DNA of 64,000 nucleotides, from positions 31,285 to 95,284 of the IMG/VR virus record IMGVR_UViG_2802429224_000004, one strand, 5' to 3'. Source of the DNA: a virus (Duplodnaviria > Heunggongvirae > Uroviricota > Caudoviricetes). The position numbers and the translations under genes were made by a program. Below are positions 5,495-58,099 of this stretch, piece by piece; the stretch's first letter is position 1, and every line of letters begins with the position of its first letter. A model generated the notes under the pieces. That model worked only from the letters and a program-made list of their open reading frames with translations, made no database searches and had not been told where the DNA came from.

Positions 5495-5694
5495 GTATTT
5501 TTAAGTCGCGAATGCTATCTTTTCGCATCATATTGACCTTTTAATCGTTCAGGCTTATAGTTCCCGCCGTCGTAGCAAATTCTGCGACCGGGTTTAGCAG
5601 CCTGAATACTTACGCGGACAACCGCAGATTTCCGATATTGCGGTATTTTTGTGTCCGTAAACCACGTTACGCCCGAATTATGGTGGGGCGTGAT

Positions 5695-5770
5695 GGGGAG
5701 GCTTCGGCCTGCTGGTTTCGTAAGTGCCAGTCTGCTAACCCCGTCACGTCCTGCCACCTGTTTAGCAGCG
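5695..5770 (+). ncRNA. c4: c4-like antisense repressor RNA of immI (boundaries approximate)
   Basis: UUCG-capped hairpin (AGGC-TTCG-GCCT); loop sequence CGTAAGT is complementary to ACTTACG found both upstream (about 5600) and at the icd RBS (about 5791). Confidence 0.35.
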
Positions 5771-9683: not shown

Positions 9684-9806
9684 TACAATCGCTGCGGGTG
9701 CTTGAGGCTATCTGCTTCAGGCATTACCCGAAAAGCAGATAGAAGAAAGCCCCAGATAACATTACGCGTCCGGCAAGACGCTTAACATTAATCTGAGGCC
9801 ACATCT

Positions 9807-10013
9807 ATGCTTAACATACGTAGATTAGCCTCTTACCGACCAAAAGGTCAAGGAGAAGCAGGCTATGAAGCAGCAAAAGGCGATGTTAATCGCCCTGATC
9901 GTCATCTGTTTAACCGTCATTGTGACGGCACTGGTAACGAGGAAAGACCTCTGCGAGGTACGAATCCGAACCGGACAGACGGAGGTCACTGTCTTCACAG
10001 CCTACGAATCTGA
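9807..10013 (+). CDS. mok-like overlapping reading frame of a hok-family locus
   Basis: 68 aa ORF overlapping the hok-like CDS in another frame. Confidence 0.3.
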   Translation: MLNIRRLASYRPKGQGEAGYEAAKGDVNRPDRHLFNRHCDGTGNEERPLRGTNPNRTDGGHCLHSLRI

Positions 10014-23851: not shown

Positions 23852-26112
23852 AAGAGCTGTGCTATGGATCTGTTTGCAGTGGAATTGAAGCCGCGAGTAT
23901 TGCCTGGGAACCGTTGGGTATGCGTCCGGCGTGGTTTGCTGAAATCGAGCCTTTTCCATCTGCCGTTCTTGCGCACCGCTGGCCCCATGTCGCCAACCTT
24001 GGCGACATGACAAAACTTGCCAAAAAAGTCCTGGCTGGGGAAATCGAATCCCCTGATGTGCTCGTCGGGGGAACACCTTGTCAGGCATTCAGTATCGCTG
24101 GATTACGTGGTGGGCTTGATGATGAGCGTGGCGCGCTAACTTTAAAGTATGTGGAGCTTGCAAATGCAATTGACGACAAACGGGCTGAGTCATTTCTCAA
24201 ACCAGCCGTTATCGTCTGGGAAAATGTCCCAGGAGTCTTGTCATCGGCAGATAACGCCTTCGGATGTTTCCTTGCCGGATTGGCTGGAGAAGATGCGCCA
24301 TTTGAACCAGGTGATCGACCTGAATCAGGAAAAAGTAACGCGTTCTGGCGGTGGGATGGCAAAACCGGTTGCCATGCTCCAAAGTGGCCGCAGTGTGGTT
24401 GTATTTATGGACCGCAGCGAAAAGTGGCCTGGAGAATCCTTGATGCCCAATACTTCGGAGTGGCACAACGACGCCGACGCGTGTTTGTTGTCGCAAGTGC
24501 TCGAACAGACCTCGATCCCGCAACGGTACTTTTTGAGTTCGAAGGCGTGCGCCGGAATATTGCGCCGAGCCGAAAAAAGAAGGAAATCACTTCCGCCATT
24601 ATTGCAAATGGCGCTGCAATCAGTGGCGAAAGCCTAAATCTATGCCTACACGCTGACATGCCACCCGGTATGAAATCGACGAAAGCCGTAAACGCTTTCA
24701 GGATGGCAGCATTTGGGGAATATATTGACGATGAAACCGCATCGACAGTAAAGGCAAGAGATTTTAAAGATGCCACTGACCTTGCCGTTTTTAGCAGCAC
24801 AGGAGCAGGTTTTTGGTCAGAAGGGCATGGTACATTGCGGGCACGTGAGCAAGAAAGCCATGAGCATCTTGTTACATTGGCTTTTCCTGAGCGTATGAGC
24901 GGTACACAACATGCTGCAACTAAGAATACTTCACCATCTCTAATGGCTAAAAATCCAACAGCTGTTTGCTATGAAGTAAGAAACGCAGAAGTAGCTGTCC
25001 GCCGTCTTACCCCTGTCGAATGTGAAAGGCTGCAAGGTTTTCCTGATGGGCATACGTTGATCCCGACGGAAAAGCGTAAAAAAGTTAATTCAGATGAACT
25101 GGCATACCTTCGCAAAAACTATCCTGATTTGAGCGAAGAAGAGGCCGCGATGCTTGCAGCTGACGGACCGCGTTACAAAGCGATCGGCAATAGTATGGCG
25201 ATACCAGTAATGCGCTGGATTGGCGATCGGATTACCAAGGCTGCATGTCGGCAGAATGAAGGGAATGAAACAAAAGAGCGAAAAGTTAAACCAGCGGCAG
25301 AATTCGAACGGTCCATATTCAAATGGGCTGGTGGAAAATTTGGTGTTCTGGAACAAATCTTTCGCTATTTGCCAGAAGGGAAGCGCCTGATTGAACCTTT
25401 CGTCGGTGGCGGAGCTGTCTTCATGAATGCCGGATACAAGGAAAATCTGCTAAATGATGTGAATGCTGACCTGATTAACTTTTACAAGACTTTGCAACGT
25501 GAGGAACGTTCACTTATCACTCTGGCGCATCGGTTTTTCCAGGACTACAACACACAGGAAGGATACCTGGCAGTACGGAATGCGTTTAACAAACAAGTCT
25601 ATGATGATTTACATCGCGCAGCGGCGTTTTTGTTCCTGAACCGACATTGTTTTAACGGATTGACGCGTTACAACCAAGCCGGTGAGTTCAATGTCGGTTA
25701 TGGGAAGTATAAAACTCCGTATTTCCCATTGCAGGAGATGGAAGCCTTCCTTGGTGCGGAAGGGCGTTCTGAGTTTGTATGTGGTGATTTTGCTGCGGTG
25801 ATTGAAGCTGCCGGAGAAGGAGATGTCATTTTTTGCGATCCGCCATATGAACCGCTTCCAAATACAGAGGGATTCACGAACTATTCCGGTCATGACTTTA
25901 AGTTTGAAGAGCAAAAACGCCTGGTGTCTCTGTTGACGGATGCTCATCGCCGAGGTGCAAAGGTTCTAATTACTAACAGTGGCGCGCCAAATATCAGAGA
26001 GCTTTATCATGACAGTGGCTTCAGAGTGGAACCTCTTTTTGCCAGACGTTCTGTGTCTTGTAAGGGGGACACTCGAGGTGTAGCTCATGACGTTTTAGGT
26101 ATATTGCTCTAA
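23848..26112 (+). CDS. dmt: Bifunctional DNA methyltransferase Dmt: N-terminal C5-cytosine domain, C-terminal Dam-like N6-adenine domain
   Basis: 754 aa; [12 protein letters not shown] (PCQ motif) and [11 protein letters not shown] (ENV motif); later [12 protein letters not shown]...EPFVGGGAV and DPPY. Confidence 0.8.
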
Positions 26113-26119
26113 TAAATTT
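26103..26119 (+). promoter_or_regulatory. C1 operator, perfect 17/17 (Op72-like, ban operon)
   Basis: ATTGCTCTAATAAATTT overlapping the dmt stop codon. Confidence 0.7.
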
Positions 26120-26293
26120 ATTAGTGTAATATCGCCTCAATGAATCGTGATTTATAGAGCGATTTAGCTGTTAGCCGCGACAGGCGCGGCGGTAAGCATG
26201 GCTGGGCCTAGTCCTCCCAGACAAACCACCGAGTTGCCAGGTTGACCATGCGCCTAAGTGGCAACACCGAAGTGCGTTACGAGCTTCCAGTTT

Positions 26294-26318
26294 GCCCATC
26301 TTCGGGTGGGCGTTTTTT
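26294..26318 (+). terminator. Rho-independent terminator or attenuator about 180 nt downstream of the operator
   Basis: GCCCATC-TTCG-GGTGGGC followed by GTTTTTT. Confidence 0.55.
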
Positions 26319-26498
26319 CAGGGTTTTCGTCATGGTTAGCGACTTTGCGGCGGTTTAGAAACTGACCATTAAAGTAAATGCAAACGATGATCTGATGATG
26401 GCAGCGGCCTAAGAAGCCAGACGCCACGGGGTATGAGTCGTCCCCCGTCAAAAAATCGACCGCAGAGTGTCCCCGTCTGTGTATTAGGGAACGGGGAG

Positions 26499-26579
26499 GC
26501 ACAACAGGTAAGGGCGCTGGTGTGATTAACCAGATGAACGAGAAGGGGCCATCTGTTGGTCAGCGTCCTTTCCTGTTGC
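26499..26579 (+). other. Structured hairpin element Y1
   Basis: GCACAACAGGTAAGGGCG pairs with CGTCCTTTCCTGTTGCG around an internal hairpin. Confidence 0.35.
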
Positions 26580-26783
26580 GTCTTCTTTTCAGCGTAACAG
26601 CGGTGCTTAACAGCACTTTGGGTACAGTTCCACGAATTTACGGGTATATCCCGTCATGCTGAAAGCGCTAATCACGCTGGAAGCCAGGGTTATGCATCCC
26701 CTGTTACCGAATTGCAGCCAGGGCGCGGTGCGCCGAAAAGCATACGGAGGTGGAAGCCCTCGCCGGAGACGTACCCGGCAAGT

Positions 26784-26858
26784 GATGGTGTAGCTCAGCG
26801 GTAGAGCAGTTGGCTGTTAACCAACTGGTCGGTGGTTCGAATCCACCCACCATCGCCA
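26784..26858 (+). tRNA. tRNA-Asn (anticodon GTT)
   Basis: Hand-folded cloverleaf: acceptor GATGGTG/CACCATC, D-arm GCTC...GAGC, anticodon loop CTGTTAA, T-arm GGTGG-TTCGAAT-CCACC, CCA encoded. Confidence 0.8.
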
Positions 26859-26860
26859 AT

Positions 26861-26993
26861 GCCGGTTTAGCTCAGTGGGAGAGCACGAGAGCCAAAGCAT
26901 CGTTTCTACTTCGGTAGACAGCCTTGCTGGTCAAATGACAACGATTCGATGTTAGGCCAGAGGTCAGCGGTTCGAATCCGTTAACCGGCACCA
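26861..26993 (+). other. Atypical 133-nt tRNA-like element lacking a recognisable anticodon arm
   Basis: Canonical acceptor (GCCGGTT/AACCGGC), D-arm, AGGTC variable loop, T-arm GGTTCGAATCC and ACCA, but about 60 extra nt in the centre including a TCTAC-TTCG-GTAGA hairpin. Confidence 0.35.
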
Positions 26994-26995
26994 GC

Positions 26996-27081
26996 ACAAC
27001 AGGTAAGGGTATTTTGCGACGTCGGAGATCGCCGAGCTTGGCAGAGGGTTCGAATCCCTACGAAGTACCCTTACCGTTGTG
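26996..27081 (+). other. Structured hairpin element Y2
   Basis: CACAACAGGTAAGGGTA pairs with TACCCTTACCGTTGTG; contains an AGGG-TTCGAAT-CCCT T-arm-like hairpin. Confidence 0.35.
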
Positions 27082-27226
27082 AGGAAGTGCAGCTCTTTGA
27101 AGCAACCAGAAGATAAGCATCTGGCTTCACCACATAAACCGCAGGAACGACCAATAAACGGTAGTCCGTATGGAGAACACCCCGTTGAGGAAGAGGCCTG
27201 GCCGGAACCGTAACCGGCACTACAAC

Positions 27227-27308
27227 GTTGAGAACACTGGCGTAACGGGGTCATATCCCAATCTATGAATAAATGTCGCGAGGCAGCGTGACAACCAGTG
27301 TTCTCAAC
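27227..27308 (+). other. Structured hairpin element A
   Basis: Perfect 14-bp stem GTTGAGAACACTGG/CCAGTGTTCTCAAC; loop carries GTAACGGGGTCATATCCCAATCTA. Confidence 0.35.
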
Positions 27309-27497
27309 ATTGTGGTGAATGCACAGGCTGATGTGCCGCAACTACAGTAGTGCGCGCTTTGCGGGGCTTGCTACAACCCTGTGTCGGAGTTCAGCACCGA
27401 CCATCACAGTTTGATTCTCTGGCATGAGCATAACGCTGAAATAAGTCCAGTCTGGTGCGGCCCGATCACCCGCCGTTAGCTCCACGAAACGGAGCAC

Positions 27498-27574
27498 GTA
27501 ACAGGTAAGAGCATTCTCCTGTAACGGGTTCATATCCCAATCTACAGGTCCACCAAGAATGCTCTTTCCGTTGC
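27498..27574 (+). other. Structured hairpin element Y3
   Basis: GTAACAGGTAAGAGCATTCT pairs with AGAATGCTCTTTCCGTTGC; inner stem CCTGTA/TACAGG; loop carries GTAACGGGTTCATATCCCAATCTA. Confidence 0.35.
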
Positions 27575-27725
27575 GGTGAATGCGGCTAAGCGCACGCGGG
27601 GAAATGGTTATATCAGTCCATTCATTTCTCCTTGTTTCCCCGTCCACGGTGGATAACCAGCCAAAGGACACCGGGAGGCACCCGGCACCGCAGCTTTTTT
27701 ATTCGTTAAATAATGGAGTGAGAGG

Positions 27726-28797: not shown

Positions 28798-28873
28798 GGC
28801 CCTTTAGCTCAGTGGTTAGAGCTGGCGACTCATAATCGCACGGTCACCGGTTCAAGTCCGGTAGGGGCCACCA
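28798..28873 (+). tRNA. tRNA-Ile2 / Met-type (anticodon CAT)
   Basis: Hand-folded cloverleaf; anticodon loop CTCATAA; T-arm ACCGG-TTCAAGT-CCGGT; close to E. coli ileX as remembered. Confidence 0.75.
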
Positions 28874-44539: not shown

Positions 44540-44851
44540 TGTCGGGATGCCGCCCGAAAGGGCGGTAATAAAAATGGCTGAACTAATCGGAGAACAAAAC
44601 GATGAAAAACCGTAAGGCAAAGATGCTGATAGCAAAGCCCGGGCAGCGTATCCGTATCTCAAATCGGCTTGTTATTTACTATAGATATCTGGGTTTTAGG
44701 GGGTGTTCCTCTATTCGTTTTTACGGTGTCTGGCGGAGCAGAAGCGCGGCGCAAAACCGCTGGAAAAACCACTTGCGCACTAAAGGAGAGTGAGGTGCCT
44801 ACACTATTCAGGAAGCTACACAATAAAATTAACCCACATAAGGAAACAGAT

Positions 44852-45256
44852 ATGGCAACTATTACCAGAGAAAGCGCAGAGATTAAATCATTCATCACTG
44901 GCTTTCTGAGCGATGCGGCGCACGATAACCAATCTTCAAACAGTCTGCTTGCTAATGTGTTTCGTATCGCGCTGGCATCGCTGGAAGCAAAACCAATAGG
45001 TGCATTCCACATTGCAGAACAGCAAGTTGACGGTACAAGTGACTACCTCAAGGATGGAGAATGGCCTATTGATAATGGAATTATTGAGGTCTACGCCGCT
45101 CCCCCCGTTCCCGTAATACAGGCTGATGTCGCGCAAGCAATTGAAAATCTCAAGCAGAAGTTAGTGGAATGCAATCGCTATAACTACTGCGCAGATGCAG
45201 TTAAAGGTGTTGAGGATGCCTGCCGCGCAGCCATGCTTCAGGGGAAAGGGAAGTGA
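44852..45256 (+). CDS. Hypothetical protein (start set at internal ATG with AAGGAAACA RBS)
   Basis: Track ORF 44669..45256 trimmed to MATITRES... Confidence 0.4.
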   Translation: MATITRESAEIKSFITGFLSDAAHDNQSSNSLLANVFRIALASLEAKPIGAFHIAEQQVDGTSDYLKDGEWPIDNGIIEVYAAPPVPVIQADVAQAIENLKQKLVECNRYNYCADAVKGVEDACRAAMLQGKGK

Positions 45257-54831: not shown

Positions 54832-55025
54832 TGTTTTTTGACTGCCGATGTTACATTGAACCTGACCTCTTGCGCCTTGAGGCATTTTCGGTTTATGCTT
54901 ATCAGGCACCTCATTAAAACGGGTGCCGGGATTGGCCTCCCGCTTAAGTCTAAGGCGATACAGACGCCGCTCGCGTCTTTTTTTGTATCGGCGTACACGC
55001 ACACCTCTACAATGGTGGGCTGTAT

Positions 55026-55105
55026 GGGGCTACCTTCGGGTAGGCTGGTTACCTTGGACGCCAGTAAGGCCAACTCCGTACAGTCCACCGCCAGCAAGAT
55101 TGGTC
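55026..55105 (+). ncRNA. Second c4-like antisense RNA with a different targeting loop (boundaries approximate)
   Basis: CTACC-TTCG-GGTAG hairpin; loop CCTTGGACG is complementary (with G-U pairs) to GTCTAAGG upstream (about 54952) and CGTCTAAGG at the icd-like RBS (about 55131). Confidence 0.3.
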
Positions 55106-58065: not shown

Positions 58066-58099
58066 ATAACTTCGTATAGCATACATTATACGAAGTTAT
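58066..58099. other. loxP: loxP recombination site (34 bp)
   Basis: ATAACTTCGTATA-GCATACAT-TATACGAAGTTAT; coordinates counted back from the 58289 start codon. Confidence 0.95.

Follow-up and report, generated by a model that had tools for sequence, protein, structure and literature searches.

A phage hairpin family with a near-invariant basal stem and variable tips: candidate RNase III punctuation in the non-coding dmt-ban leader of a P1-like phage-plasmid

Between the genes dmt and ban of a P1-like phage-plasmid (IMG/VR record IMGVR_UViG_2802429224_000004, of which positions 31,285 to 95,284 form the window of 64,000 nucleotides (nt) analysed here) lies a non-coding interval with four long hairpins, designated Y1, Y2, A and Y3. 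These hairpins exist, are homologous to one another and to many others in phages, their pairing is under selection, and the plus strand is the strand that folds. The family combines a nearly fixed basal stem with a freely varying sequence enclosed by it, referred to below as the cargo. Our analysis puts at roughly 0.5 the probability that the Y-type hairpins act as RNase III-type punctuation in a polycistronic non-coding leader, where cutting would free the modules between them; both RNase III as the reader and module release by cleavage are what we infer from the comparisons below. No description of the hairpin family, its fixed-stem/free-cargo design, its spread among phages or its separator role was found in Rfam or the searchable literature.

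Four stable hairpins in the leader

The original prediction placed four hairpins of about 80 nt in the interval, and all four are present with small shifts in coordinates. Y1 (26500-26580), Y2 (26995-27081), A (27218-27317) and Y3 (27497-27575), all on the plus strand, have minimum free energies of -43.2, -42.1, -48.8 and -35.6 kcal/mol and z-scores of -5.3, -5.4, -8.2 and -6.1, respectively. They fold 16-25 kcal/mol below their dinucleotide shuffles, none of which (0/200) was as stable. The arms of A are 23 nt, longer than had been claimed, and A is the top inverted repeat (up to 160 nt) of the whole window, in a ranking that also includes Y3 and Y2. The segments between the hairpins fold like shuffles (z from +0.4 to -2.5), so the dense structure of the interval resides in the hairpins and the tRNAs. 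As had been stated, there is no credible plus-strand open reading frame (ORF), with none longer than 71 amino acids (aa) in 26113-27725.

The closing-stem motif predicted for Y1, Y2 and Y3, AACAGGTAAG(G/A)G, occurs three times (families D2 and D7), with the family 5' arm of Y1 reading CACAACAGGUAAGGGC, and the loop motif GTAACGGG(G/T)TCATATCCCAATCTA is indeed common to A and Y3 (96%; D4). Aligned on the family stem, A shows several two-sided changes, and by this alignment it is a diverged member of the family, not a separate type. Y1 stands after the tmRNA-like module in all P1-like copies. The hairpins had been described as packed against tRNA-Asn and a tRNA-like element; Y2 does abut that 133-nt element, starting 1 nt past its CCA, but none of the hairpins abuts tRNA-Asn. 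The cargo of Y2, which contains a D-arm-like hairpin and a canonical T-arm (GGGUUCGAAUCCC), is also found next to a tmRNA-like module in two other loci (L079 and L098). In the P1 relative Ro157c2YLVW the Y2 stem GGUAAGGGUA/UACCCUUACC is replaced by GGUAAGAGCA/UGCUCUUACC, a compensatory change, with the entire interior swapped, and Y3 has lost 13 nt of its loop.

A fixed stem around a free cargo

IMG/VR was scanned for AACAGGTAAGRGCATT and complete hairpins were extracted by arm-anchored searches; all family counts are lower bounds. At least 87 unique hairpins of 67-155 nt were obtained, all closed by CACAAC-A-GGUAAGAGCAUUG / CAGUGCUCUUUCC-GUUGUG. The basal helix of about 19 base pairs (bp) consists of 6 bp, a bulged A and a further 13 bp including one U.U or U-A position. 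Between the arms lies a cargo of 21-109 nt that is unrelated across variants: among the matches listed, cargo identity was 0.437 versus 0.422 after shuffling, 42 cargo clusters were distinguished, and 13 of 87 cargos contained a T-loop-like motif. Y2 has a canonical T-arm; A and Y3 carry UCAUAU loops without A58.

From the same matches, 57 distinct arm pairs were aligned with the cargo removed and the arms joined by GAAA. Pairs form in 94.2% of the cells of this alignment, compared with only 38-55% for slid structures, and two-sided changes are found at 11 of the 19 pairs; none of 500 column shuffles reached any of these measures. The outermost 6 bp covary (CACAAC/GUUGUG, CGUAAC/GUUGCG, ACUAUC/GAUAGU), and one stem position is U.U in 43/57 and U-A in 13/57. 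Since G.U and U.G wobbles are common on the plus strand (e.g. 41/57 at one pair), where the minus strand would have mismatches, it is the plus strand that folds. The selection on RNA structure put forward in the original prediction is borne out by these figures. Of the four hairpins, only Y3 (27.2 bits, E 2e-5) and Y1 were picked up by R1, a covariance model of the stem; the model spans too few positions to accommodate long cargos, which is why it misses the others.

Changing stems around a conserved loop, the pattern on which that proposal was based, hold for A against Y3, but family-wide the reverse applies, with a near-invariant stem and hypervariable loops. The A/Y3 cargo motif ACGGGNUCAUAUCCCAAUCUA (27242-27265 and 27521-27544) recurs in the cargos of two other loci (L182 and L174) with compensatory changes (GGGC/ACCC, GGCU/AGCC) and is probably a small functional hairpin by itself.

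Distribution and genomic setting

Family members occur in P1-like plasmids, lambdoid prophages, T1-like phages and Enterobacterales genomes. The segment comprising Y3 and the module S2 behind it is matched in 619 of 5426 complete Escherichia coli genomes, in 400 of them over at least 80% of its length, and mostly on plasmids. One lambdoid variant alone is present in 340/5426 E. coli chromosomes, inside a 510-nt gap between the antiterminator gene Q and the holin gene, as in the E308 prophage. The same stem is found in Klebsiella siphovirus ZX4. In the Drexlerviridae phage CS01, a hairpin lies upstream of the phage's module and gets a weak stem-model score (13.5 bits). Family hairpins are also found in Serratia, Yersinia, Rahnella, Klebsiella, Superficieibacter and Pectobacterium genomes; 17 of the 120 matches in the genome scan were complete hairpins, the remainder being chance 16-mers without the 3' arm. 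Phages of the Ackermannviridae and Chaseviridae have analogous hairpins with other stem sequences. In the Ackermannviridae phages PhiSH19 (L005, ~980-1100) and KNP4 (L008, ~1080-1160) the same design is built on the stem CACAUCUUAGAGGACAUUG...CAGUGUCCUCUAAGAUGUG, and one of the cargos bears a T-arm.

Several matching contigs (L266, L273, L276, L337, L347 and L355) are identical or nearly identical to the late leader of phage lambda, and three of them are labelled Pseudoxanthomonas, Pseudomonas and a Chromatiales metagenome-assembled genome. Judged by this identity, they probably represent lambda DNA contamination of those assemblies. Positions 44743-44922 of the lambda record J02459 match the context of several small non-enteric contigs at 100%.

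Every copy is co-oriented with transcription, and tRNA genes are frequent neighbours. Among the 157 hairpin instances listed, the element directly upstream was a T-run terminator in 62, the small hairpin CUCCACGAAACGGAG in 18, a tmRNA-like module in 12 and the CCA end of a tRNA in 5. An S-type module, which has GUGAAUGCGCAGGCUGAUGCGC (or a variant of it) at its start and a small hairpin plus CACCAC at its end, was located downstream in 121, and a tmRNA-like module in 9. Identical upstream contexts are joined to differing cargos and to differing downstream modules; the arrays are mosaics.

RNase III punctuation and the lambda late leader

The connection to RNase III comes from phage lambda. Positions 44787-44861 of J02459, 6 nt past the tR' (6S RNA) terminator, hold a family member whose stem CACAACAGGTAAGAGCATTG...CAGTGCTCTTTCCGTTGTG is homologous to the AACAGGTAAG(A/G)G...C(C/T)TT(A/T)CC(T)GTTG of Y1-Y3. 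No other double-stranded element of the late leader is as long, and the only feature that it overlaps is the unassigned 'orf-64'. In 1988, Daniels, Subbarao, Blattner and Lozeron reportedly found one or more RNase III processing sites in the lambda late (PR') leader, in that single phage. The family member probably corresponds to a site mapped then, at a location that we infer. The lambda hairpin and Y1-Y3 have in common the stem and the position in an untranslated leader directly after a terminator, whereas the 1988 work concerned one phage and the family described here has variable cargos and extends to P1-like, T1-like and Enterobacterales prophage-type contexts.

The dimensions and placement of the stem are consistent with such a role. 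About two helical turns are formed by its 19 pairs, with more pairs inside many cargos, and the co-oriented copies are placed in untranslated leaders, after Pban and the C1 operator in P1 and between tR' and S in lambda. Long imperfect stems between the RNAs or genes of polycistronic transcripts are also known from the early region of T7, from rRNA operons and from the pri-miRNAs processed by Drosha; in those cases recognition takes place at the lower stem, and the apical part is set free or stays behind as a 3' hairpin that gives protection. Sequence similarity among such sites is low, unlike in the present stem, in which 19 bp are near-fixed beneath a tip of 21-109 nt. RNase III in vivo has sequence and structure preferences that discriminate its substrates from other stems, which could explain the conserved stem sequence.

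In the proposed mechanism, the basal helix would be the recognition and cleavage platform for host RNase III, the simplest candidate reader for some 20 bp of helix. With a cut in the lower stem, the RNAs on either side (tRNAs, small RNAs (sRNAs) of the STnc100/PasD type, the tmRNA-like module) would come apart, and the apical hairpin would be set free or capped, becoming a small stable RNA. The leaders concerned, downstream of the C1-repressed Pban in P1 and between tR' and the holin gene in lambda and lambdoid prophages, are untranslated and transcribed in lytic growth. Because Y2 starts so close behind the CCA, cutting would trim 3' trailers of the tRNA-Thr type. The bulge and the U.U pair might confine cutting to one strand, as happens at T7 RNase III sites with internal loops. 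A processed polycistronic RNA with RNase III sites had been among the suggestions of the original prediction, and it is the best-supported reading, by the indirect route of homology to the lambda hairpin.

A number of points weigh against cleavage by RNase III. The placement of the RNase III sites inside the lambda hairpin is our own assignment. The stem is more sequence-invariant than is usual for known RNase III substrates, and thus a different, sequence-specific reader is possible. The bulged A and the U.U pair could block cutting altogether, or limit it to one strand. Canonical STnc100 copies lack a Y hairpin upstream. Finally, the 24-nt motif in the cargos of A and Y3 is 96% kept despite diverged stems, which suggests that some cargos have a function beyond punctuation.

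Rival readings

The readings are not all mutually exclusive; arms that are short and identical, for instance, would favour the exchange of modules irrespective of what they do in RNA. One rival has the hairpins uncut, serving as structural clamps that prevent misfolding of the modules, block 3' exonucleases and exclude Rho from the 1.5-kb untranslated leader. It agrees with the confinement of unusual stability to the hairpins and tRNAs and with the fact that hairpins always stand between stem-closed modules. Stability would suffice for a clamp, though, and a near-invariant sequence with a fixed bulged A and U.U across unrelated phages goes unexplained; we regard clamping as rather unlikely. 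We also think it unlikely that the cargo is the functional part and the fixed stem a scaffold for diverse, separately selected small RNAs (decoys, tRNA-like mimics, base-pairing loops). The discrete cargo clusters, the T-loop-like motifs in some of them, the conservation of the A/Y3 motif on differing stems and the compensatory changes that preserve its small hairpin in related cargos (L182, L174) would suit cargo display; a close P1 relative tolerates the 13-nt deletion in Y3 and the swap of the whole Y2 cargo, and no cargo has an antisense match to ssrA.

Improbable, in our judgement, is a function at the level of DNA, with the 20-bp arms serving as recombinase homologies for module swaps or the hairpins being mobile DNA similar to miniature inverted-repeat transposable elements (MITEs) or attC sites. 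Single upstream contexts do occur with varied cargos and downstream modules. The likeness to integron attC sites is loose: in both, a single strand folds, the ends read AAC...GUU, a base is extrahelical and the terminal structure varies. Here, the AAC/GTT core is not fixed, being absent from the ACUAUC/GAUAGU variant (ACTATC...GATAGT in L143 and L156), and the copies follow the direction of transcription. Two-sided changes together with wobbles that pair on the plus strand only point to a folded single strand, not to recognition of duplex ends. These changes and wobbles, along with unrelated interiors, led us to reject a MITE. No target-site duplications were noticed in the listed flanks, where no systematic search was made, and no integrase or transposase was noticed among the genes viewed, which came from a few loci and not from a systematic survey.

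Even less probable is an origin as decayed tRNA genes of a variable phage tRNA array. The hairpins do lie in a tRNA cluster that differs among P1 relatives, and the degenerate tRNAs suggested earlier have some basis in the T-arm and D-arm-like hairpin of Y2 and in D-arm- or T-arm-like parts of a minority of other cargos. Most cargos are devoid of tRNA features and the conserved long stem is foreign to tRNAs; no tRNA model matches any hairpin, ARAGORN and Rfam RF00005 calling only 26784-26858 and 28798-28873, and no intermediates between this stem and an acceptor stem were seen. An Rfam scan (E <= 10) gave no known family that explains the hairpins, which attracted only spurious matches to miRNA precursors. 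YrlA (RF02553) resembles Y2 in combining a long terminal stem with a tRNA-like T/D module, but its sole match, of 20.5 bits, falls on the junction of tRNA-Asn and the tRNA-like element and on no hairpin.

Hardly credible, to our mind, is conservation due to the minus-strand protein genes plp and upl. P1 records annotate both, overlying Y2, A and Y3, and the window has corresponding minus-strand ORFs of 125 aa (26964-27341) and 109 aa (27342-27671), with translations rich in Cys, Arg and Ser. Against coding stands the splitting of the homologous DNA over two frames in at least seven relatives for plp and at least four for upl. The 13-nt deletion, cargo swap and ~160-nt insertion of Ro157c2YLVW are frame-breaking. 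RefSeq annotation by PGAP leaves the matched stretch without a gene in 39 of the 40 records listed and has a 'hypothetical protein' in one. The plp- and upl-equivalent ORFs are probably not genes, and the conservation of the region is at the RNA level.

A tmRNA-like module with an arm antisense to host tmRNA

The interval starts with an element overlooked in the original prediction, a module (26321-26498) that resembles tmRNA (SsrA). Its portion 26335-26498 matches intergenic DNA of many unrelated phages at 71-88%. The module of ~170-180 nt, aligned first in seven and later in 34 unique copies, is present in P1-like, lambdoid, N4-like, T1-like, Ackermannviridae and Chaseviridae phages. On the plus strand of the window it consists of a 5' arm that by RNAduplex and alignment is antisense to nt 56-106 of host tmRNA (26323..26369); a resume codon GCA, preceded by UAAAU, with a 10-codon tag ANDDLMMAAA and a TAA stop (26380..26412); and, by covariation, a stop-codon helix (26399-26426) followed by H-type pseudoknots at 26427-26460 and 26462-26498.

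Fifteen different tags occur in the 34 unique copies. All have 10 codons and a stop (TAA, once TAG) and take the form AN(D/E)x....(A/V)A, with a reading start of UAAAU, then GCA AAC GAU...; the tag of P1 is ANDDLMMVAA and that of E. coli tmRNA ANDENYALAA. Where the module has UAAAU before the resume codon, E. coli tmRNA has UAGUC, both with UA at -5/-4. In 15 diverse phage copies the stems covary (CGGGG/CCCCG, CAAGG/CCUUG, GAGG/CCUC). Covariation is abundant in the pseudoknots, whose loop-to-downstream pairings are GUCG/CGAC, CCGA/UCGG and CCAG/CUGG.

The module thus shares with tmRNA, including the two-piece form, the UA at -5/-4, the GCA resume codon, a 10-codon ANDxxxxxxA tag, a helix enclosing the stop codon and a pair of pseudoknots behind it. 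It differs in the absence of a tRNA-like domain, G3:U70 and CCA, and in its ~48-nt antisense arm, which is not known from any tmRNA. ARAGORN called no tmRNA in the window or in six other phage loci, and the Rfam tmRNA models, including tmRNA_permuted, reached 21-33 bits versus a gathering score of 47. No tRNA-like domain with the alanine acceptor (G3:U70) and CCA was found for the module, and the shortest copy, from the Aeromonas phage pAh6-C, lies in a 277-nt gap with no T-arm or tRNA-like domain in its flanks. Two candidates for such a domain were rejected: the Y2-type cargo has no CCA and too long a stem, and the 133-nt tRNA-like element has C3-G70 and is a rare allele. In a 2014 census, ssrA among phages was confined to mycobacteriophages and Bacillus phage G. 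No description of the module, its tags, the stem sequence or a phage anti-tmRNA was found in the searchable literature.

The arm of the window pairs with E. coli K-12 ssrA at -45.1 kcal/mol (RNAduplex; shuffles -20.4 +- 4.1), with a local antisense alignment score of 33 versus 15.8 +- 2.2. Of 15 diverse copies, 11 form the corresponding duplex at -42 to -50 kcal/mol, shuffles ranging from -12 to -20 +- 3-4. The target, ssrA nt 56-106, comprises the 3' half of pseudoknot 1 (PK1), the linker, the resume codon and codons 2-6. GUUUUCG, complementary to host CGAAAAC, is invariant in the 34 unique copies, and two variant groups of arms keep the pairing in a different register. No conserved internal structure was detected in the first 48 nt of the module, and the phage tag codons do not match the arm. 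In the leader, the Y cargos included, the arm is the only segment antisense to ssrA. From the arm end to the phage GCA there are 12 nt, compared with 10 nt from PK1 to GCA in native tmRNA. At most loci Y hairpins flank the module, and several upstream Y 3' arms run directly into AGUUUUCG, so processing at Y would free the antisense arm.

A tentative explanation, which we hold to be possible but doubtful, is a 'tag-swap', in which the phage RNA would dock over ~40 bp on host tmRNA nt 56-106 and replace the tag template. On docking, PK1 would be opened and the host resume codon hidden, and the template function would pass to the phage tag with its stop-codon helix and pseudoknots, host tmRNA still providing the alanyl-tRNA-like domain and SmpB. 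Products of stalled ribosomes would receive a tag ending in ...VAA, ...AAA or ...AVA instead of ANDENYALAA. The Y hairpins on either side would act as gates at which RNase III frees the module RNA. A weaker version, in which the arm would only block tmRNA or make it an RNase III substrate, seems to us somewhat easier to accept, while still short of an even chance. Weak points for docking are the arms of pAh6-C and L098, which pair poorly (-24 and -26 kcal/mol), and the computation of arm pairing against E. coli ssrA only. A third weak point is that the divergent pAh6-C arm was expected to match a divergent host tmRNA, but the predicted sequence is found in no genome.

Layout of the interval and neighbouring modules

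Window positions 26100-27720 are ~98% identical to phage P1 68664-70199, and 27420-27700 is 100% identical to one E. coli plasmid. In the P1 record, C1-controlled Pban promoters at the dmt end open the interval and are followed by a 'dicF-like region', tRNA-Asn and tRNA-Thr. The order in the window is a terminator, the tmRNA-like module, Y1, ~200 nt, tRNA-Asn, the tRNA-like element, Y2, a short module, ~80 nt, A, the S-type module S1, ~90 nt, Y3 and finally S2 with its terminator; further downstream are small ORFs, a tRNA (CAT) and ban. The first terminator is a strong hairpin (26294-26320) that ends the equivalent of the 'dicF-like region' of P1 (26228-26320), for which no Rfam family matches at E <= 10.

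tRNA-Asn (GTT; 26784..26858, plus strand) is called by ARAGORN and scores 75.5 bits with the Rfam tRNA model. The adjoining 133-nt tRNA-like element (26861..26993, plus strand) takes the trnT slot, which in P1 holds a normal 76-nt tRNA-Thr. An encoded CCA and the acceptor, D and T arms are present, a branched 79-nt insert takes the place of the anticodon arm, and neither ARAGORN nor the Rfam tRNA model calls the element. Only 11 of 662 related plasmids carry this allele at full length. The tRNA clusters of P1 relatives vary, with Asn/Thr, Asn/Tyr/Thr and Ser/Thr/Asn arrangements.

The short stem-closed module GUGAGGAAG...CUUCACCAC (27079..27135, plus strand) follows Y2-type hairpins in P1-like loci and folds no better than shuffles. 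S1 (27311..27409, plus strand; GUGGUGAAUGCACAGGCUGAUGUGC ... GUCGGAGUUCAGCACCGAC CAUCAC) is closed by a 7-bp stem and shares its conserved 5' and 3' ends with the S-type modules found behind Y hairpins. S2 (27572..27701, plus strand) is an STnc100/PasD-like sRNA module that ends in an intrinsic terminator. It matches positions 31-147 of the 206 in Rfam RF02076 (STnc100) at a sub-threshold 37.8 bits (gathering score 47, E 3e-6), and its outline is tRNA-like, the 3' strand of a 7-bp closing stem carrying a small stacked hairpin. Both STnc100 and PasD, which are prophage sRNAs bound by Hfq, are encoded beside Q, and the related prophage sRNA PasA is reportedly cut from a longer transcript. Like PasD in lambdoid prophages, the Y/S arrays adjoin Q; the Y hairpins themselves lie outside RF02076. 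A correspondence of model positions 1-30 to the Y 3' arm was considered and dismissed, given the canonical STnc100 copies without an upstream Y. Chromosomal CRISPR arrays of some E. coli strains contain spacers that match positions 27661-27694 at 100% (H189, H190).

Elsewhere in the window (5555-5761, 9696-9870, 54906-55095 and 58066-58099), Rfam identifies two C4 antisense RNAs with a1/b1 targets, sok, and isrK, which adjoins the second C4; loxP, in the same set of coordinates, shows up as a perfect 13-nt inverted repeat.

Implications

P1 and lambda are among the best-studied phages, and the stretches considered here have been left unannotated or given doubtful ORFs (plp, upl, orf-64). One hairpin family across P1-like, lambdoid and T1-like phages would mean a shared grammar for non-coding leaders. 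Its recognition would provide a concrete class of RNase III substrates and a way to find the small RNAs encoded between the hairpins. The tmRNA-like antisense module would, if confirmed, be categorically new. One leader RNA appears to target or re-programme host trans-translation, and if confirmed, this would be a new kind of phage-host interaction.

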